In this document: positions 2,400 through 48,705 of the stretch, one piece after another | How the letters are laid out: every line of letters begins with the position of its first letter | Position numbering within the stretch: position 1 is the stretch's first letter | Source: Myxococcota bacterium | Lineage (GTDB): Bacteria > Myxococcota_A > UBA9160 > UBA4427 | Direction: 5' to 3' | DNA length: 64,000 bases | Assembly: GCA_965250285.1 (NCBI GenBank) | Contig: OZ252299.1 | Span: 4,096,001-4,160,000 of the forward strand | Notes under the pieces: model-generated | The model's input: only the letters and a program-made list of their open reading frames with translations | Told to the model about the DNA's origin: nothing | Databases searched by the model: none | Made by a program: the position numbers and the translations under genes

Positions 2400-2476
2400 C
2401 GAAGGCCAGCGCCACGTCGATCCAGGACGCGTGGATCGGTGGCCCGGTCGTTGACCGGCAGATCGCACGCAGCGTT

Positions 2477-2493
2477 TGCACGGTTTCTGCACG
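2477..2493 (+). promoter_or_regulatory. TGCAC-N6-TGCAC direct repeat, candidate OmpR/CreB-family binding site
   Basis: TGCACG at 2477 and 2488 (11-bp spacing) upstream of the exosortase operon; related TGCAC-N6-CGCAC at 1792-1807. Confidence 0.4.
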
Positions 2494-2559
2494 AACCCGC
2501 CCGCGTCTCGCCCAGGCTCATTCATCCCCGCCGCACGGGCGCATCGCACCCTGCCCCTC

Positions 2560-4098
2560 ATGCCGCGATCCCCCCGTATCCGCCTGAGCCGCTTCGCCGG
2601 CGAACCCATGGGTGCCCGCCCGCGCAGCTTCGCGTTCTGGCTCGCCGGCCCGGGCCTCGCCGCCCTGGTCATCGAGCCGGCCGTCTGGCTCGGCCGAAGC
2701 TGGCTCGACCCCTCGTATCAGAGCGACGGCTGGATCGTGGCCGCGATCACCGCGGCTTTGCTGCTCGCGTCCTTCGCGAGCGGCTCGGCGCCGCCCGATC
2801 GCCGAGACCGCCGGCGCGCCCTCGTCGCCCTCGCAGCCACCGCCGGCGTTCGACTCATCGGGCGCCTGCTCGCGGTCCACACCATCGGCGCACTGGCGCT
2901 CGTCGTGGACGTCTGGGCCGTGGCCGTACTCGTCGGCGTGCGACGTCGGCCCTTCGCGCTGCAGCCCGTCGGCCTCGCGCTCTTCTTCGCGCTGGCGCTG
3001 CCCGTCGAACACCTCGCCCAGCGACTGCTCGGCCATCCACTCCAGCGCGCGGCAGCGACGACCTCGGAGTGGGTTCTCGCGCCCTTCTTCCCCGAGCTCA
3101 CCCGCGAAGGCGTGCTGCTGGTGCATCCCGACGCGATGCTCGCCGTCGACCTGCCGTGCAGCGGCGCGCGCGGTCTGGTCCTGCTGACGGCCCTCGCCCT
3201 CGGGCTTTGGACGTGTCGCGCGCCCGGGGTGCGGGGCACGATCGCGGGCTCGGCTGCCGTCGTCCTGGGCGCTTTCGCCGCGAACACGCTGCGCATCATC
3301 GCGCTCTTCATCGGCGGGGTCGTTCACGTCCCGGTGATCGAGGAGCCCTGGCATTCGGCGATGGGCGCGCTGGTTCTCGCGATCGGGGCCGCGCCTCTGC
3401 TCCTGATCGCGATGCGCGCGCCCGCACGGCGACCCACCCGCCCGCCCCTGTCGGCCGGGCTCGGCAGTGGCGCGCCTTCTGGCCATCACCGGTCGATGCC
3501 ATGGCCGCTGGCACTCGCCGTCAGCCTGATCGGCCTCGGCATCGCGTTCGCGCCCGAGCGGCCCCTCGACGTCTCGGGCCCCGTCGAACCTCGAAGACTG
3601 CCGACGACGCTCGGCCGCTTCGTTGGCCTCGAAGTGCCGCTTCGCGAGCGCGAGGCGATCTACTACACGCGCTTCGGCGGCTACGCGCAGAAACGCATCT
3701 ACGATGACGGCGGCGGCGACGCGATCACCGCCCTGCTCGTGCGCACGCGTTCACCGCTGCGACACCTGCATGGCCCCGAGGCCTGCCTGACCGGCGCGGG
3801 GCACGACGTGACGCGCCTCGGCGTGGTGCCCGGCGCGACGCCCGCCGTCGTCTACCGAAGCATCGACGCACAGGGCCGGCCCTGGCGAATCGAGGCGAGC
3901 TTCGTGAGCGATCGCGGCGAGGTGGCGACCAGCGTGTCCGAGGTGGTCTGGCGCTGGCTCGAATACCCCGACGCCGCGTGGAGCCTGGTCGAACGCATCA
4001 CACCCTGGTCGACGTGCGAGCGCACGCCCGGCCGTTGCCGCGAGCTCGAGACTGCGCTCTTCGCGAGCCTCGATCTCCCCGTGGAGAGACGCCCATGA
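2560..4098 (+). CDS. Exosortase/archaeosortase-family transpeptidase with C-terminal EpsI-like extension
   Basis: Multi-TM; catalytic Cys-Arg-His motifs DLPCSG, ANTLRI, EPWHS; C-terminal HLHGPEACL; start 2560 or 2608. Confidence 0.85.
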   Translation: MPRSPRIRLSRFAGEPMGARPRSFAFWLAGPGLAALVIEPAVWLGRSWLDPSYQSDGWIVAAITAALLLASFASGSAPPDRRDRRRALVALAATAGVRLIGRLLAVHTIGALALVVDVWAVAVLVGVRRRPFALQPVGLALFFALALPVEHLAQRLLGHPLQRAAATTSEWVLAPFFPELTREGVLLVHPDAMLAVDLPCSGARGLVLLTALALGLWTCRAPGVRGTIAGSAAVVLGAFAANTLRIIALFIGGVVHVPVIEEPWHSAMGALVLAIGAAPLLLIAMRAPARRPTRPPLSAGLGSGAPSGHHRSMPWPLALAVSLIGLGIAFAPERPLDVSGPVEPRRLPTTLGRFVGLEVPLREREAIYYTRFGGYAQKRIYDDGGGDAITALLVRTRSPLRHLHGPEACLTGAGHDVTRLGVVPGATPAVVYRSIDAQGRPWRIEASFVSDRGEVATSVSEVVWRWLEYPDAAWSLVERITPWSTCERTPGRCRELETALFASLDLPVERRP

Positions 4099-6389
4099 AC
4101 ACACCCATCCTTCGCTGCGTCGGTGCGCGTGCACCGATCGAAACCCGCGCGCGCGAACGCTTCGTTCTACGTGCATGGGTCGCTCTCATGATCGCGACGG
4201 CATGCTCGATCGCGATCGGCGCGACCTCGGTGCAGGCAAGCCCGCACGACGGCACCCGACCCGAGCTCGTCGCAATCATCGACGGAAACGAGGTGCCGCT
4301 GCCGACCCTCGCGCTCGACATGAAGGCGAAGATCCAGGGGGATCTCGCGACGGTGATCCTGAGCCAGACGTTCGAGAACCCGAACGATGTGCCGATCCAC
4401 GCGCGATACATGTTCCCGCTGCCGCCCGACGCGGCGGTCTTTGCGATGCGCTTCATCTCGGGTGACCAGATGATCGAAGCCGAGATTCGCGAGAAGCAGG
4501 AGGCGCGCGCCGTCTTCGAAGCCGCGAAGAAACGCGGCAATCAGGCGGCCCTCACCGAGCAGCATCGCCCGAACGTGTTCACGCAGGAGGTCGCGAACCT
4601 CACGCCCGGCTCGCGCGTACGGGTCGAGCTCGAGTACGCGCACGTCGTCGACAAAGAGCACGGCGACTACCGGTTCCACTTTCCGATGGTCGTCGGTCCC
4701 CGCTTCGTTCCACTCGCGCCTTCCGGGGGGAGCGCGGGTGCCCCCACCCGAGTGCCCGGAGAACCCGAGGCACTCGAGGTGGGGGTCTGGAACCTGCCGC
4801 CGACGATGCCCGTCGCACCGCCCGATCGCGTCGACCGCGATCGCGTCTCGATTCACGTCGAGCTCGACGGCGGGCTCCCGGTGCGCGAGCTCACGAGCCC
4901 GAGTCATCCGCTGAAGGTCGAGCAGGACGGGCGGAGCAAGCGGACGATCACGCTCGGCGAGGGGCGCACGCTCGACAACCAGGACTTCGAGCTGCACTAC
5001 CACCTGGCCGATGACGACGTCGCCGCGGGGGTCACGAGCTTCGCAGACGGCGGCGACGGCTACTTCTCGTTGCTGATCGAGCCGCCCGACGAGGTCGCCG
5101 ACGGCCGGATCGCTCGGCGTGAGATGGTCTTCGTGCTCGACTGCTCGGGTAGCATGTCGGGCGTACCGATGGCGGCCTCGAAGCGCTTCATGCGCCGAAG
5201 CCTCGCGGGCCTGCGACCGGGCGACGCATTTCGCATCATCCGCTTCAGCGACTCGGCGACGGCGTGGAGCGAACAGCCGCTCCCCGCGACGCCCGAGAAC
5301 GTGCGAGACGGGCTGCGCTACGTCGACTCGCTCTTCGGCAGCGGCGGCACGCACATGGCGAGCGGCATTAGCGCCGCACTCGCGCCGGCTGTGCAAGAGG
5401 GCCGCGTGCGACTCGTCGTGTTCCTGACCGACGGCTACATCGGGAACGACATCGAGATCGTACGCCTGCTCGAAGCCGAACGCGGCGAGGCGCGCCTGTT
5501 CTCGTTCGGCATCGGAAACAGCGTCAACCGCTACCTGATCGAAGAGATGGGCCGCGTGGGGCGCGGCGCTTCGCGCATGGTGCGCCCCGACGCCGATGCC
5601 GAGCAGGCCGCCGACGAGCTGGTCGCCCGCTTGGACGCGCCCGTCCTGACCGACATCGAGATCGACTGGGGCGACGCCGATATCGCCGACGTCTTTCCGC
5701 GCGAGATCCCCGATCTCTTCGCGGGGCAGACCGTTCGAGTGATGGGCCGATACGAAGCGCACGGTCGGCACCGGGCCATGATCCACGGTCGGATCGCCGG
5801 GGCACCGGTGAAGCTGCCCATCGATCTCGATCTGCCCGCACACGAGACGGGGGTCGAGGGCCGCGCCATTCCGATCATCTGGGCGCGCTCCCAGATCGAG
5901 GACCGCATGATCGAGTTCATCTCGCCCGCATCCGATCAAGAGGACCGCGACGCGCTGCAGGCCGAGGTGACCCGCCTCGGGCTGACCCATCGCCTGCTGA
6001 CCCAGTGGACCTCGTTCGTCGCCGTGGCGCGCGAGGTCGTGAACCCCGGCGGCGAAGGGTTCGACGCCGACGTCGAGGTGCCCCAGGTCGAAGGCGTCGC
6101 CGAAGCCGCGTATCCGCCCGGCGCGGTCCCGACGTCACCCGGGGCGAGCGCCGTCGCCGCGTCGAGCCCGACGAGCGAATCGGAGACGAGCGGCTTCGAC
6201 TTCGGCCCGGCCGCCGGCAAGGGGGCGCTCGCGCCCGCAGCGCCCGTCTTCCACGGCGCGCTGCAGCTCGTTGCGCAGAACGGGTTCACGGGCGCGTCGG
6301 GTCCGGAGCCCTCCACCTGGCTCGCGCTCACGGCGATCGGGCTCGTCGGCAGCGTGTTGTGGTGGCGCCGCACTACGGCAAACTCGTAG
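4095..6389 (+). CDS. VIT + vWA domain protein with PEP-CTERM sorting signal
   Basis: ATGA overlap with exosortase; VIT (QTFENP..YMFPLPPDAAV), vWA MIDAS VFVLDCSGSM, FLTDG; C-terminus GPEPSTWLALTAIGLVGSVLWWRR. Confidence 0.92.
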   Translation: MNTPILRCVGARAPIETRARERFVLRAWVALMIATACSIAIGATSVQASPHDGTRPELVAIIDGNEVPLPTLALDMKAKIQGDLATVILSQTFENPNDVPIHARYMFPLPPDAAVFAMRFISGDQMIEAEIREKQEARAVFEAAKKRGNQAALTEQHRPNVFTQEVANLTPGSRVRVELEYAHVVDKEHGDYRFHFPMVVGPRFVPLAPSGGSAGAPTRVPGEPEALEVGVWNLPPTMPVAPPDRVDRDRVSIHVELDGGLPVRELTSPSHPLKVEQDGRSKRTITLGEGRTLDNQDFELHYHLADDDVAAGVTSFADGGDGYFSLLIEPPDEVADGRIARREMVFVLDCSGSMSGVPMAASKRFMRRSLAGLRPGDAFRIIRFSDSATAWSEQPLPATPENVRDGLRYVDSLFGSGGTHMASGISAALAPAVQEGRVRLVVFLTDGYIGNDIEIVRLLEAERGEARLFSFGIGNSVNRYLIEEMGRVGRGASRMVRPDADAEQAADELVARLDAPVLTDIEIDWGDADIADVFPREIPDLFAGQTVRVMGRYEAHGRHRAMIHGRIAGAPVKLPIDLDLPAHETGVEGRAIPIIWARSQIEDRMIEFISPASDQEDRDALQAEVTRLGLTHRLLTQWTSFVAVAREVVNPGGEGFDADVEVPQVEGVAEAAYPPGAVPTSPGASAVAASSPTSESETSGFDFGPAAGKGALAPAAPVFHGALQLVAQNGFTGASGPEPSTWLALTAIGLVGSVLWWRRTTANS

Positions 6390-43576: not shown

Positions 43577-46500
43577 CTACGCGCGTCGGCGCAGGCGCCT
43601 CCGTGCCGCGATCAGCACAGGCACGATGAAGGCCAGCTCCGCACCGAGACCGCAGAGTCGCAGACCCTTGACCTGGAGATCCATCGTCACCATGCGGTGA
43701 TCGGAGGCGTCCAGTAGATCGGCCGTCAGGTCGGTGGTCAGCGGCCAGTACACGAAGCCCTGCTGTGGGGTCAACGCAGCCTGCGAAGGCAGGACGTAGT
43801 CGGCGCGCAGATTGAAGCTCGCCGTCTTCGTCTCACGCTCGCTGCCCGAAGGCACCTGCTCGAGCGCGCCCTCACTCGTCGGCGTGATGGTCGAGTCGAC
43901 GAAGGGGCTGTCCAGCAGGAGCAGCGCGGGGTTGAAGGTCGCGTCTCCATCCACCGGGTCCGCGTTCTGGTCGCCCATGATCACGAACCGCGCACCCTTC
44001 ATCAGACCGCCGCGGCGCTTGCGCAGCTTGGGTGCCCGACCCTTCTTGTCCCACTCGCGGTCGTCGTAGATGTACGCGCTCTTGTCGGGATCGACGTAGT
44101 CGGCCCAGAAGCGAATCTCATCGTGGTTCCGCAGACCATTCACGTCCGCGACGTTCGGGTCGGGGTAGACCGTGGCCGTCCCGTCGTCGAAGACAGGCGG
44201 GGTCGGGTGGCTGGCGAGCACGTGCAGCACGCCGTGACCCGGGATCCACACCGGCACGTCCATGTGGGTCTTCGACGAGAGGCGGTAGATCTCGAGCTCT
44301 TCGTCCGTGAAGTAGCTCGTGAGGTCGCCGTCGCCGTCCGTGTCGTTCGGGTCGGGCGGCAGGAACGCGCCCGGCATGTCGACCCAGCGGAACTTCTGGA
44401 ACGTCCGCACCCGGTGCTCGAGAATCTCGTGCTTCGAGAGCACGATCATCGCGAACTGACCCGCGTGGTTGCCGAAGCCGAAGGCGTCGCCCGGCCCCCC
44501 GACGCTGCCGTTGTTGTCGAGGTCGAGCCCGGCAGGCACACCGGTGTTCGACGGCGACACGAAGGCGTAGTCGTAGTAGACCGGGTCGGTGTCGTCGGCT
44601 TGGGCGACCTCGAGGTAGTTCGCCTTGAAGTCCTCGATCGTCGCCAGCGTGGCAGCGAGGCCGAACTCGCCATTCTCATCGTAGAGCTGATCGTACTCGT
44701 TGATCAGCACGATGTCGGCGTCGACCCGCTGGATCACCTCGGCCACCTGCTGGATCTGGCCATCGGCCCCCGACGCCAACGCGGTGGCGAGGTCACCCGA
44801 GTTCGGGCGATTCATCGACGTGTTGAAGCTGGCTACGCGCAGATTGCCGAGCTTCTCTGGATCGACGTATTCGGTTACCTCGACCGCATCGACCTGGATC
44901 GCGTCGATGACGCTGCCCTCACTGTCGGTCACCGTGAGCGCGACGGTGTAGACGCCCGCCGCCGCATACTCGTTGGTCGGCCCTTCGGCGTCGGACGTGT
45001 TGCCATCGCCGAAGTCCCAGGCCAGATCGTAGGGCGGCACACCCCCGGTCACCGTCGGAATGAAGGTCACCGAGCCACCGCTCCGCGTGAATGCGAAGCC
45101 GGCCTCGAGCGGTCCGCCGCGCTCGGCGATGCAGACCTGGTCGACGCCAATGCGCTTGGTGGTGCCACCGCTGTCCCCCGCCGACTCGTAGAGGAACGCC
45201 ACTCGAACGTCTTCGCCGGTCAGACCGATGATGTCGGATGACACGTCGATCCAGGCGTCTGAGGTCGATCCGTCGAGCCCGGTCGGCGTGATGTCGACCC
45301 AGCTCGTCGTGGTCGGGTCGCCGGTATAGCTGTTGGTGACCAAGACCGAGAGCGGCTTGTCGATGGTATCGCCGAAGTTCTCGTAGTACTGGAAGTCGAC
45401 GCCCGTGTTCGGGTTGCCGACGAAGATCGGCGGGCTGATCAGCCAATCCTTCGCGGGCGTGCCGCCTTCGATGCCACCGGGCGGCGAGCCGAAGTTGTTG
45501 TTGATCGCGCCCTGCTGGCCGGCTCGGTTGTCGTAGATCCAGCCGAACTCCGAGCTCAGATTGACGATCTCCCACGGCGTCGACGGATCGTCGGCGATGT
45601 CGCTGTTCTCACCGCCTTCGAAGTCGAAGCCACACTGGCCCTTGATGATCACGTCGTCGACGTTGAACCGGACGCTCTGGCCGCCACCCCCGCCCAGGCT
45701 CTGATAGCGATAGGCGATGTACGCCGTGCCATCGATGCCCGAGATGTCGAAGGGGCCCTGCGGCGTCAGCGTGCCGTCTTGCGACGTGTCGATGTTGATG
45801 ACGTTCCACGTCGCCTCGTTCGGATCGGCGTTGCTCAGCGGATCGTAATCAGTCGACCAGAGCACCTCGGGTGCGGGACCGCTGAACGCGATCTGCGCGT
45901 CGTAGGTGAGACTCTCTTCGCTGAAGAAGAGGAAGTTGATCGGATTGGTCGTGATCAGCCAGTCTTCGGTGGGCGTCTCGCCACCGAAGCCGTTGCCCTG
46001 AATCGCGCCCGTGCTCCCGAAGTCCCAGAGGACCCAGGCGAAGTTGCGATCGGGGCCCGCCACGTCGACGGGCGTGAACTGGCCGAAGCTGTCGGGCACC
46101 TCGAAGTTCTCTTCGAAGATCACCGGCAGCAGCGACACGAGGGTCGTGCCCTCGGCCGTCGCGCTGAGCGCGCTTCGGCCGTGGATGTTGACCGCCCAGA
46201 TCCGGTAGCTGTACGTCAAACCCGACTGCACCTCGGTGTCGACGTAGCTCGTGAACGTGCCGGGATACTCCCGCTCGACCACTTCCCAGGCGGCGTCGCC
46301 CGGCGACTGGCGCTCGATGCGGAAGAACTTGGCGTCGCTCTGCCCGTCCCAGGTGAGATCGAGGCTGATCTCGGTCGCGTTGGCGGTCGCCAGGCCGGTC
46401 GGCGTCGCCGGCGCCGTGCCGGCATCGGGCGAGCCCACCCATGCGATCAGCTCGGCGTCGAGGCGAAGATCCGAGCTGCCGTCGTTCTCCTGGTGCACCG

Positions 46501-48547
46501 AGATCGCGAGCACGTTGCCTGTGGCCTGCAGCGGCACGTCGGCGCCGGTAATCGGGATCTGCTTCCAGTCGGTCTCGGCCGACTCGTTCTGGCTGGCGAA
46601 CGTGTCGTTGTCCACCACCAGGTCGAGATTCAGGTTGTAGCGTGCGACCTCGACCCCGTTGACGTACACGACCGCGCCGTCGTCGACCTTCAGGTAGAGG
46701 TCGAAGAGCGCGATGTTGGTCGGATCGGCGAGGTCGAACTCACGCCGGAAGTAGTACGCGGCCGCGCGAGGCGACGGAGGCTGGACGAGATCGGTGGCCA
46801 GGCGACCGGCCGACTCTCCGTAGCCGAGCATCGTCGGCACCGGCCCCGTGGGCGTGCCGTCGGTGGCGACGTTCCACGACGCGTCGGGTACGAAACCGAC
46901 TTCGTTCCAGGATGCGCCCGGGTCGACCCCGTCGACGCGGTAGTCCCAGAGATCTCCATTCGCGATGAGAGGCGTGCGCAGCAGATCGCTGCCGCGGCCG
47001 GCGAGGTTGATCAGCACCAGCTGGCCGTTCTCGACCAGCTCAGCGCTGTCGGAGAGGCCGTTGCTCGTATGCACCTGGATCGACGAGGCATACCAGCCCT
47101 CGCCCAGGATGTCGGCCATGCTGATGACGCCCGACGACTCTTCGTTCGTCGTCAGGAAGGCCGAGCCGCCGTCGAAGAACACCTCGCCATCGTGCTCGGC
47201 GATCTCTTCGAGCTGGCCCGTCGTGATGTCGTACTCCCAGATCTTCGAGAGCCGCGCGTCGCCACCGAGATCTTCCTGGATGTAGAGCTTGGGCAGGCCG
47301 CCCTCGATGCCGAAGCCCATGTTGTCGAGGCTTCCGAGGCGGTTCTCGGGGCCATCGAGGAGCAGGGTCATCGTGCCGCCCAGGGCGGGGTTCGACAGAT
47401 CATCGAACTCGAGCCGCCAGAGGCGGGTCGGGGCGTTCAAGCCACCCGACGACGTCCCCTTGGTGACGAAGTAGAAGGTGTTCTCGAAGCCGGGGCGCGT
47501 ATCCCAAGCGCCGTCTTCGGGCCCGCCCATCTTCAGGCTCTCGAAGGTCTGAGCCGGGTCGACCGGAGTAATGGTGTCGGTGCCGCGGTTCGTGGTGTCG
47601 TTGCCGTCGACCGGGCGGTTGCCGTCGGTCCCGATCAGCTTCAGCGTGAAGGGTTCGACCGTGCCGACGGCCGAAGCGAGGTCGAGGTCGAGCTCGAAGG
47701 GCTTGCCGACGACCGCGATCGCGTAGAGATTGCCGCCGACGAGACCGGCCTTCTCGACGTCGTTGCCCGTGGTCTGCTTGGTGCCGACGTAGACGTAGAC
47801 CTCACCGTTGGTGGCATCATCGAGGAGCACGGCCACCGTCGTATCCTGCTCGAAGGGGCTGAGGACGAGGTTCTCGATGGCCATGAAGCCCAGGTGCTCG
47901 AGGTGGTACGACCGGCCGGCGTCGGGGCCCGTCACGACGTGGCCCATCGCGCGGCCCGTCGAGAAGCTCTCTTCGCCATTGAAGTAGAGGATGTTCTGGG
48001 TGCCCAGGCCCGTCGCCGAGTTGTACAGCGCGGTCGGCGCGGGGCGATCCGAAGAGCAGAAGCGATCGAAGGTGAGAGAGCCCGGGACGAAGGTCTGGGT
48101 CGTCTCGTCCCAGTCGAACGTCTCCTTGATGAGGTCATCGCCCTCAACGACCTCGTGCGTGACCTTGTCGACCTTCCACTTCGACACGAAGGCGCCCGCG
48201 TTGCCGTGGTCTCGCGGGATGCCCTGGGTGCTGTTCAGCTCGTGATTCACGATGAGATAGAAGAAATCGGGCTCCGGCGGCGAGAGCTCGGCGCCATCGA
48301 TCACGCCGATGCCGTCGGGAATGCCCGCGAGGCGCGTCGTGCCGCCCCCCGTCTTCGGCACCGTGCCGTCGTCGACCGTCAGGATCGATTCGATCAGCAC
48401 CCCAGGCACCGAAGGGAGTACGTAGGGGGGCACGGTGGTCGACGGGCTGGTGGTCTGGGCAAGAGCCGAGGCCGACAGCAACAGCGCAAGGACGGCGCCG
48501 AGAAGCACCGCCGTCGGGCGGGTGAGGGAACGGACAGCGTGCGGCAT
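43577..48547 (-). CDS. Giant surface protein: PhoX-like domain, jelly-roll, Fn3, two adhesin-like domains, PKD, EEP phosphoesterase, Cys-containing C-terminal anchor
   Basis: AGGAG + ATG 48547 (alt 48613); PDG, NHE, RFCS, GEE, EN, DD, PED, DN, QED, ESSG; VDDGAVVYVNG; DWLI x2; WDFGDG; FNTSMNR..INE..GDQNAD..DYV..SDH. Confidence 0.9.
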   Translation of the reverse strand: MPHAVRSLTRPTAVLLGAVLALLLSASALAQTTSPSTTVPPYVLPSVPGVLIESILTVDDGTVPKTGGGTTRLAGIPDGIGVIDGAELSPPEPDFFYLIVNHELNSTQGIPRDHGNAGAFVSKWKVDKVTHEVVEGDDLIKETFDWDETTQTFVPGSLTFDRFCSSDRPAPTALYNSATGLGTQNILYFNGEESFSTGRAMGHVVTGPDAGRSYHLEHLGFMAIENLVLSPFEQDTTVAVLLDDATNGEVYVYVGTKQTTGNDVEKAGLVGGNLYAIAVVGKPFELDLDLASAVGTVEPFTLKLIGTDGNRPVDGNDTTNRGTDTITPVDPAQTFESLKMGGPEDGAWDTRPGFENTFYFVTKGTSSGGLNAPTRLWRLEFDDLSNPALGGTMTLLLDGPENRLGSLDNMGFGIEGGLPKLYIQEDLGGDARLSKIWEYDITTGQLEEIAEHDGEVFFDGGSAFLTTNEESSGVISMADILGEGWYASSIQVHTSNGLSDSAELVENGQLVLINLAGRGSDLLRTPLIANGDLWDYRVDGVDPGASWNEVGFVPDASWNVATDGTPTGPVPTMLGYGESAGRLATDLVQPPSPRAAAYYFRREFDLADPTNIALFDLYLKVDDGAVVYVNGVEVARYNLNLDLVVDNDTFASQNESAETDWKQIPITGADVPLQATGNVLAISVHQENDGSSDLRLDAELIAWVGSPDAGTAPATPTGLATANATEISLDLTWDGQSDAKFFRIERQSPGDAAWEVVEREYPGTFTSYVDTEVQSGLTYSYRIWAVNIHGRSALSATAEGTTLVSLLPVIFEENFEVPDSFGQFTPVDVAGPDRNFAWVLWDFGSTGAIQGNGFGGETPTEDWLITTNPINFLFFSEESLTYDAQIAFSGPAPEVLWSTDYDPLSNADPNEATWNVINIDTSQDGTLTPQGPFDISGIDGTAYIAYRYQSLGGGGGQSVRFNVDDVIIKGQCGFDFEGGENSDIADDPSTPWEIVNLSSEFGWIYDNRAGQQGAINNNFGSPPGGIEGGTPAKDWLISPPIFVGNPNTGVDFQYYENFGDTIDKPLSVLVTNSYTGDPTTTSWVDITPTGLDGSTSDAWIDVSSDIIGLTGEDVRVAFLYESAGDSGGTTKRIGVDQVCIAERGGPLEAGFAFTRSGGSVTFIPTVTGGVPPYDLAWDFGDGNTSDAEGPTNEYAAAGVYTVALTVTDSEGSVIDAIQVDAVEVTEYVDPEKLGNLRVASFNTSMNRPNSGDLATALASGADGQIQQVAEVIQRVDADIVLINEYDQLYDENGEFGLAATLATIEDFKANYLEVAQADDTDPVYYDYAFVSPSNTGVPAGLDLDNNGSVGGPGDAFGFGNHAGQFAMIVLSKHEILEHRVRTFQKFRWVDMPGAFLPPDPNDTDGDGDLTSYFTDEELEIYRLSSKTHMDVPVWIPGHGVLHVLASHPTPPVFDDGTATVYPDPNVADVNGLRNHDEIRFWADYVDPDKSAYIYDDREWDKKGRAPKLRKRRGGLMKGARFVIMGDQNADPVDGDATFNPALLLLDSPFVDSTITPTSEGALEQVPSGSERETKTASFNLRADYVLPSQAALTPQQGFVYWPLTTDLTADLLDASDHRMVTMDLQVKGLRLCGLGAELAFIVPVLIAARRRLRRRA

Positions 48548-48705
48548 CGCCGGTTTCTCCTGGATGGCCGCGCCTCGGAGGGCGGCTTGGCTCGCGGCGT
48601 AGATGGACGTCATCGAGGCGAGACCTCGCCCACGATGGCCGGCACCCTATCCGTTCGTACGAATTCACGCGGTTGAAAAACGGTGGCCTTCCGGTCGCGC
48701 TCGCC

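Follow-up and report, generated by a model that had tools for sequence, protein, structure and literature searches.

CGLG-CTERM, an apparently uncatalogued cysteine-containing C-terminal signal of an uncultured myxococcotal order, and its Lgt-linked gene neighbourhoods

A secreted multidomain protein and its C-terminal tail

The window analyzed here is a stretch of 64,000 nucleotides (positions 4,096,001 to 4,160,000 of contig OZ252299.1, assembly GCA_965250285.1) from a Myxococcota bacterium, whose genome (G000) is a single contig of 6.25 Mb that is 95% complete. Our subject is the C-terminal tail of P0001, a secreted multidomain protein of 1,678 residues encoded on the reverse strand (43577..48613, -), which was delineated by translation of its open reading frame (ORF) and by domain searches. 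The protein ends in CGLGAELAFIVPVLIAARRRLRRRA followed by the stop codon, with the layout CGLGAEL-AFIVPVLIAA-RRRLRRRA, and we term this type of tail CGLG-CTERM. In translation it spans 25 residues and the stop codon (43577..43654, -) and comprises three parts: a signature of the form C-G-[LF]-G-x-E-L (43634..43654, -), with Cys1654 at 43652-43654 and Glu1659 at 43637-43639; a short hydrophobic stretch, L1660-A1670, which includes Pro1665 (43604..43636, -); and an Arg cluster, RRRLRRRA and stop (43577..43603, -). The first Arg lies 17 residues after the Cys, which is also the median of the family of 156 distinct tails described below.

The tail begins 15 residues past the match to the last folded domain, an Exo_endo_phos domain (PF03372, residues 1262-1639, 43697..44830, -; Pfam, 61.3 bits), and thus agrees with the tripartite end after a last folded domain that was described in the initial annotation of this DNA, a reading of the letters alone. 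Upstream of it lie a PKD domain (residues 1179-1241, 44891..45079, -; Pfam) and a choice-of-anchor J domain (residues 1008-1161, 45131..45592, -; NCBIfam, 66.6 bits against a cut-off of 30). The N-terminal segment of about 540 residues (about 46900-48450, -) drew no Pfam match; we take it to resemble a propeller of the PhoX-type phosphatases, and PF05787 is present in some homologues of P0001. A putative Sec signal peptide, Met23 to Ala52 (48458..48547, -), was recognized by eye from an inferred start codon, with homologues starting at the matching place.

Recurrence of the tail and its clients

Among 35,267 six-frame ORFs of this genome, 11 matched the regular expression, and in one of them the canonical motif was followed by a hydrophobic segment and basic residues. 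A subtilase of 558 residues (C1:5017294-5018970) terminates in a variant form, CGLIGVEM-helix-Arg, and a profile hidden Markov model (HMM) built from 39 aligned tails found exactly 2 matches in this genome. Over 41 related genomes taken together, the DNA pattern CG[LF]GxE[LF] gave 122 matches against 26 for the reversed control, and its recurrence thus exceeds chance; of 30 such loci inspected, 18 proved to be genuine C-terminal tails, the other 12 being chance matches. A longer and stricter pattern run against the genome collection gave at least 124 loci (four of them being one contig); of the 124 listed, 117 were tails and 7 chance matches. The record titles of these loci, among the matches listed, were mostly Myxococcota or Deltaproteobacteria. 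We regard the 'Spirochaetales' labels on a block of tail-bearing records as unreliable, because these records agree with the others in GC content and share their cassettes. True tails were also seen on two short contigs labelled Gemmatimonadota and Thermoanaerobaculia, which may represent transfers or misbinning.

The host order, which we take to be UBA9160 of the GTDB, was represented by 132 genomes, some of which had also supplied seeds for the 39-tail profile. This profile matched 84 of them, 75 at E ≤1e-4, with up to 29 tails per genome; in the genus g14 it matched only 1 of 26. In a sample of the class it matched 93 of 168 genomes of this order as against 2 of 32 in the sister order, and in a sample of the phylum the pattern was found in 23 of 48 genomes of the order, 0 of 10 of the sister order and 6 of 243 others (with 11 control matches among these others). 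CGLG-CTERM is confined to this order, where it ends many unrelated secreted clients, in keeping with the lineage-specific signal proposed in the initial annotation. The same source named a motif limited to this one protein as a ground for refutation; in the order, over 150 distinct proteins bear it.

In 133 of the 156 distinct tails the protein ends no more than 35 residues past the Cys; 11 run on for more than 60. The apparent invariance of the C, G, G and E positions is in part imposed by the search pattern, as is the higher share of Pro at +11 among the 156 tails; in the 39 tails picked on the motif alone, Pro occupies +11 in 28. Position +2 is Leu in 89% and Phe in 10%, and Gly or Ser often precedes the Cys. 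The 75 clients whose 5' ends are complete form 29 clusters; 105 of 2,775 pairs are similar. Pfam matches were obtained for 16 of the 26 cluster representatives scanned and are of widely differing kinds, among them subtilases, trypsin, CAP, LamG, CotH and M64.

The homologues of P0001 are informative regarding the role of the tail. Among the 24 closest, which share 57-69% identity over the last domain, none bears a CGLG tail: 8 stop after the domain, 7 carry a PEP-CTERM tail at the same position and 9 have other ends; more distant homologues end in helix tails rich in Gly-Gly or Ser-Gly. Given that homologues swap, replace or drop the tail at the same position, it behaves as a sorting signal. 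The features by which Haft recognizes tripartite signals (10.1101/2023.06.07.544157) are found together here, namely a C-terminal position, several copies per genome, the motif-helix-Arg order, unrelated clients and homologues that lack the tail, and we consider it almost certain that CGLG-CTERM is a C-terminal sorting signal.

The reading frame stays open beyond the tail in one locus (L052:7677-12875, -) and in the group L010, L053 and L122. It then crosses a further signal-like segment and enters a different secreted protein, which has a CGLG or PEP-CTERM tail at its own end. These run-on frames could possibly be polyproteins, lost stop codons or assembly errors.

Relationship to catalogued signals

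Even at E values as high as 10, NCBIfam gave no match to the tail of P0001, and there was none in Pfam. In searches with all 39 aligned tails the best NCBIfam matches were weak: Synerg-CTERM (TIGR04564) matched 6 of 39 with a best E of 0.0026, the tail from the window not being among them, MYXO-CTERM matched 6 of 39 with a best E of 0.024, JDVT-CTERM matched 1 of 39 at E 2.9, and CGP-CTERM (TIGR04288) matched none of the 39. A strong match to an existing CTERM model, which the initial annotation had named as a second ground for refutation, was not obtained. In the literature covered, mostly outside subscription journals and supplements, we found no description of the CGLG motif as a CTERM signal, nor of a sorting signal of UBA9160. 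By its sequence, then, the CGLG tail looks distinct from all four described Cys-containing tails and is apparently uncatalogued, as the initial annotation had supposed when it judged that the CGLGxEL form does not match the known signals it listed.

PEP-CTERM (TIGR02595, processed by exosortase) has the same length and position as the CGLG tail and is interchangeable with it on P0001 orthologues, whereas the CGLG tail has no Pro-Glu-Pro motif and has an invariant Cys. This genome encodes six exosortases and, by the rule used here, 63 PEP-CTERM tails. The exosortase in the window (2476-4098, +) is XrtT (421.7 bits against a cut-off of 250), and the gene directly downstream (3978-6389, +) encodes a protein that resembles the marine proteobacterial sortase target (471 bits, below the cut-off of 551) and ends in a GPEP-helix-Arg tail, so that the exosortase has an adjoining PEP-CTERM target, as was first read from the sequence. 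Elsewhere in this genome we observed an XrtH-like exosortase (C1:1538041-1538670; 79.7 bits against a cut-off of 86) and a further group of tails of the form VP-x-L-G/S-helix-Arg (for example C1:3941443-3950814, 4228937-4232200 and 741923-744130), which resemble IPTL-CTERM.

CGLG could accordingly be a variant of PEP-CTERM that is cut by an exosortase of the order, with the Cys being secondary or separately modified. The 7 of 24 P0001 homologues with PEP-CTERM at the same position, the abundance of exosortases in this genome and a Glu as invariant as that of PEP fit such a view, as does the spacing: the first Arg or Lys follows the Cys by a median of 17 residues in the 156 tails, against 18 in the 63 PEP-CTERM tails. 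One exosortase cluster was also seen in signal-positive genomes only, in 3 of 7 of them. However, no exosortase adjoins any client in the loci scanned, no exosortase cluster follows the distribution of the signal, and an invariant unpaired Cys is foreign to PEP-CTERM, all four described Cys tails having been assigned CPBP proteases (10.1101/2023.06.07.544157, cited here and below for the part available to us). We therefore consider an exosortase substrate unlikely.

MYXO-CTERM (TIGR03901, TIGR03382, NF040914; MrtX/MrtC/MrtP) is similar to CGLG-CTERM in its occurrence in Myxococcota, its invariant Cys, helix and Arg cluster, its many unrelated secreted clients per genome and the presence of type II secretion. 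It differs in length (34 residues against about 25), and CGLG has no spacer between Cys and helix, a single Cys, a Glu at +5 and a frequent Pro at +11 within the helix. The helix of MYXO-CTERM is described as having no charged or Pro residue, and often there is a second Cys (10.1101/2023.06.07.544157). TIGR03901 exceeded its cut-off in 40 of the 132 order genomes, and the best 30 of these loci comprised 27 PEP-CTERM tails, 2 true MYXO-CTERM tails, 1 other and no CGLG tail. The cognate protease is likewise elusive: Mrt_core (NF040914) passed its 100-bit cut-off in none of the 132 genomes, the best score being 48.7, although known myxosortases are more than 40% identical throughout this core (10.1101/2023.06.07.544157). 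In this genome Mrt_core reached at best 23.2 bits, MrtS at most 32 (cut-off 130) and MrtJ at most 32.9 (cut-off 75). Such absences are soft, because each genome search scores only about 20 candidates.

These results bear on whether CGLG is simply the diverged MYXO-CTERM of the order, cut by a myxosortase that has drifted beyond the reach of NF040914. Signals and enzymes are indeed reported to drift lineage by lineage (10.1101/2023.06.07.544157), the record titles place the hosts in Myxococcota, true MYXO-CTERM tails are few in the order, as if replaced, and the C-[SA]-P tails of Rhs proteins (see below) look intermediate. Yet the missing spacer and second Cys, the Glu and Pro in a helix that by definition excludes them in MYXO-CTERM, the weak best TIGR03901 match and its 30 best loci without a CGLG tail, and an Mrt_core score less than half the cut-off make this derivation rather improbable. 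The two true MYXO-CTERM tails (L604 in G322 and L605 in G387) lie in genomes with no myxosortase above cut-off and may be orphans or recent transfers.

The other three Cys tails each share some features with CGLG. Synerg-CTERM (TIGR04564, MrtS NF040589), which has the best, though weak, HMM similarity, also has one Cys, placed directly before a Leu-rich helix in which a Pro is conserved (10.1101/2023.06.07.544157), often with Gly or Ser before the Cys; unlike CGLG, with its myxococcotal hosts by record titles, it is in print known from Synergistota only, and its description has no G-L-G-x-E. CGP-CTERM (TIGR04288, MrtA NF040590) is comparable in its Cys-Gly start, very short length and lack of a spacer, but belongs to Thermococcales archaea and has an invariant Pro at +2 (a Gly-Pro follows the Cys; 10.1101/2023.06.07.544157) where CGLG has Leu or Phe. 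JDVT-CTERM (NF033191, MrtJ NF033192) resembles CGLG in its single Cys and in the acidic residue and Pro of its helix, but these form an adjacent Asp-Pro nine residues after the Cys (10.1101/2023.06.07.544157), and the signal usually occurs once per genome beside its protease, whereas in CGLG the Glu is at +5 and the Pro at +11, a genome can have as many as 29 copies, and no protease adjoins the clients in the loci scanned.

Candidate enzymes and a proposed sorting route

Clustering of neighbouring genes uncovered a cassette with the order PEP-CTERM protein, a DUF7467 client of about 930 residues ending in CG[FL]GPEL, Lgt2 and a convergent PAP2_3 gene, where Lgt2 is a paralog of Lgt (Pfam LGT, 96.8 bits). 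The combination of DUF7467 client, Lgt2 and PAP2_3 was observed at 7 loci; it was present at every one of the 10 top Lgt2 loci and recurred in 3 of another 20 regions. An unrelated client of 1,458 residues in the genome G018, ending in CGLGFEL, is convergent with a PAP2_3 gene and with an Lgt from a different subfamily; this Lgt has no BLAST match to Lgt2, and the PAP2_3 protein is 26% identical to that of the main cassette. A client is thus seen beside an extra Lgt and a PAP2_3 gene in two independent cases. Two arginines of the housekeeping Lgt of this genome are, by eye, retained in all the Lgt paralogs seen here, and Lgt is described as having essential arginines (PMC12462473, in the part available to us).

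Lgt2 occurs in 30 of 75 signal-positive as against 2 of 57 negative genomes and PAP2_3 in 32 of 75 against 3 of 57, but these tables overstate the association because the main cassette reflects a single orthologous event and one genus accounts for 25 of the 57 negatives. We rejected Lgt2 as the general CGLG enzyme given its presence in only 30 of the 75 positives and its absence from this genome. Extra Lgt copies were seen in 3 of 21 negative genomes. PAP2_3 accompanies Lgt2 in 29 of 32 genomes, and pairs of an Lgt paralog and PAP2_3 with no client nearby recur (L543-L548, L555, L583, L586); a signal-negative genome of g14 is among their carriers. The pair may serve some lipid function independent of the tails. 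In one further locus (L506:5869-7830, -, in G028) an Lgt-like domain is in frame with a long extension ending in a Gly-rich helix and an Arg tail.

A second Cys-tail system was observed in the order. Rhs/YD proteins of about 1,200 residues end in C-[SA]-P-spacer-helix-Arg (16 tails) and travel with a divergent Lgt (LgtR) and a CPBP protease (CPBP-R), often adjoining and sometimes with a rhomboid. In this genome the system lies at C1:592714-596490 (+), 597421-598089 (-) and 2896101-2896751 (-), and it recurs at L254, L255, L428, L429, L512, L519, L521-L523 and L526-L529. LgtR and CPBP-R were each found in 37 genomes, 34 of which have both, and in 15 of 30 loci the two genes are no more than 1.5 kb apart. 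LgtR reaches 35.9 bits with Pfam LGT in its best member, 2 of 3 tested members falling below detection, and CPBP-R keeps the EE and HxxxN motifs. As machinery for CGLG this pair was rejected: it sits with Rhs genes, occurs in the signal-negative genus g17, and was not found in G038, G199, G325, G326, G209 and G005, where with about 20 candidates scored per genome misses are possible. Both genes are absent from the genus g14. The Rhs cassette nonetheless offers an analogy from the same order for a possible Lgt lipidation and CPBP cleavage of CGLG tails.

We looked for a processing protease through inventories of 7 signal-positive and 4 negative genomes, a comparison that does not reach universal families, and none of the CPBP, exosortase or rhomboid clusters occurred in all the positives while missing from all the negatives. 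Within these 11 genomes the profiling for a co-occurring membrane protease that the initial annotation had suggested pointed to no candidate. Nor did 20 regions around mostly single-copy clients reveal a new enzyme, and no CPBP adjoins clients in the client loci scanned. A rhomboid-like neighbour in the genus g34 was rejected as it has, by eye, no catalytic Ser. A CPBP linked to uvrA was likewise rejected, being present in 26 of 26 genomes of the signal-poor genus g14 and not found in the families f8, f9 and f11. It is intact in signal-rich genomes and degenerate in this one, where the copy between uvrA and an exosortase (C1:4880517-4881806, +) has lost the catalytic EE and HxxxN; it is also degenerate in several other genomes and intact in others, and is a pseudo-protease that arose repeatedly.

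A tail that is lipidated or merely inserted and never cleaved, serving as a permanent inner-membrane anchor whose conserved motif packs helices, would account for the failure of these searches and for the Lgt2 and G018 cassettes, which contain Lgt and PAP2_3 and no protease. Against such an anchor, orthologues swap the tail for a signal that is cleaved, and a Glu and a Pro conserved in so short a helix would suit recognition by an intramembrane enzyme, as has been argued for JDVT-CTERM (10.1101/2023.06.07.544157); we give it a low probability.

The state of the tail Cys can be assessed from the other cysteines of the clients. Counted up to the tail, 47 of 60 complete clients have an even number of Cys (binomial p 1e-5, which is overstated because the clients are related and not independent), and 78 of the 80 DPxC modules found upstream include a partner Cys. 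Given that the nearby upstream Cys are self-paired and the upstream count is even, the tail Cys is most likely unpaired. A structural disulfide between the tail Cys and an upstream Cys of the last domain, with no sorting role, was rejected as very improbable: another Cys does lie within 60 residues upstream in 128 of 144 clients, but these are already paired, and in P0001, whose other Cys are residues 186, 994 and 1161, the nearest is 493 residues away.

We propose the following route for CGLG-CTERM proteins. After export through Sec, the helix and Arg cluster would stop transfer in the inner membrane. The tail Cys would next receive an S-diacylglyceryl group. In most genomes the housekeeping Lgt would perform this transfer, in some cassettes a dedicated paralog, and the PAP2_3 partner may supply or remodel the lipid. 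A CPBP-type intramembrane protease outside the myxosortase clade, reading the Glu- and Pro-bearing helix, would then cleave after the Cys, and the lipid-anchored protein would pass to the outer face via type II secretion; GspD of this genome passes its cut-off with 557 bits. Every chemical step is drawn by analogy with MYXO-CTERM, for which cleavage by MrtX is Cys-dependent and Lgt-like lipidation followed by CPBP cleavage has been proposed (PMC11980579, in the part available to us); the Cys-modifying enzyme is left unidentified, with Lgt as a guess, in the available parts of both accounts (10.1101/2023.06.07.544157; PMC11980579).

On this analogy the tail Cys is probably lipidated, and it is likely, if a little less so, that the CGLG helix is cleaved off. 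That an Lgt-family enzyme does the lipidating is evenly balanced. The chain as a whole, from an order-specific signal through Lgt-family lipidation and helix removal to type II surface export, is a tentative proposal that falls just short of that balance. Of the two suggestions made in the initial annotation, lipidation of the Cys finds indirect support in the Cys parity and the Lgt-paralog neighbourhoods, while for processing by an enzyme encoded elsewhere no candidate was found.

Several observations weigh against this route. In addition to the overstated co-occurrence tables, the lack of a myxosortase above cut-off, the absence of a protease cluster tracking the signal and the discordant distribution of the uvrA-linked CPBP, the hydrophobic core of the P0001 tail is only about 11 residues long. 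A crude hydropathy rule, itself a weak heuristic, scored 60 of 75 clients as signal-peptide-like against 675 of 1,270 in a looser control. This genome has neither Lgt2 nor the PAP2_3 partner, its only Lgt-type genes being the housekeeping Lgt and LgtR, and 12 of 24 positive genomes tested have a single Pfam Lgt, including G038 with 12 tails and G209 with 10. Furthermore, three sets of 20 (other Lgt2 loci, widened Lgt2/PAP2_3 regions and regions around extra Lgt copies) contained no case of an adjacent client; one of the searched regions, included by design, has a client about 10 kb away.

A broader scenario, which is possible though doubtful, is that the order lost MYXO-CTERM and MrtX and runs at least two new Cys-tail systems, CGLG for general cargo and C-[SA]-P for Rhs proteins, both lipidated at the C-terminus by repurposed Lgt paralogs, with CGLG relying on an Lgt and PAP2_3 module and no myxosortase.

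MYXO-CTERM has been called universal in Myxococcota (PMC11980579, as far as the text available to us goes), and the lack of a myxosortase above cut-off in this order qualifies that statement. CGLG-CTERM would be a fifth Cys-containing C-terminal signal beside the four described, and its tails mark likely surface proteins, as many as 29 in one genome, of an order that is widespread but uncultured. If the broader scenario is true, the cassettes would provide the first Gram-negative candidates from gene neighbourhoods for the missing lipid transferase of Cys-tail sorting, a form of lipoprotein biogenesis in mirror image. The sets of client and Lgt paralog, like the cassette of Rhs protein, Lgt and CPBP, are small self-contained units in which the guess at Lgt can be tested in E. 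coli, and the added value of these Lgt-linked cassettes is that they render the question of the lipid transferase testable.

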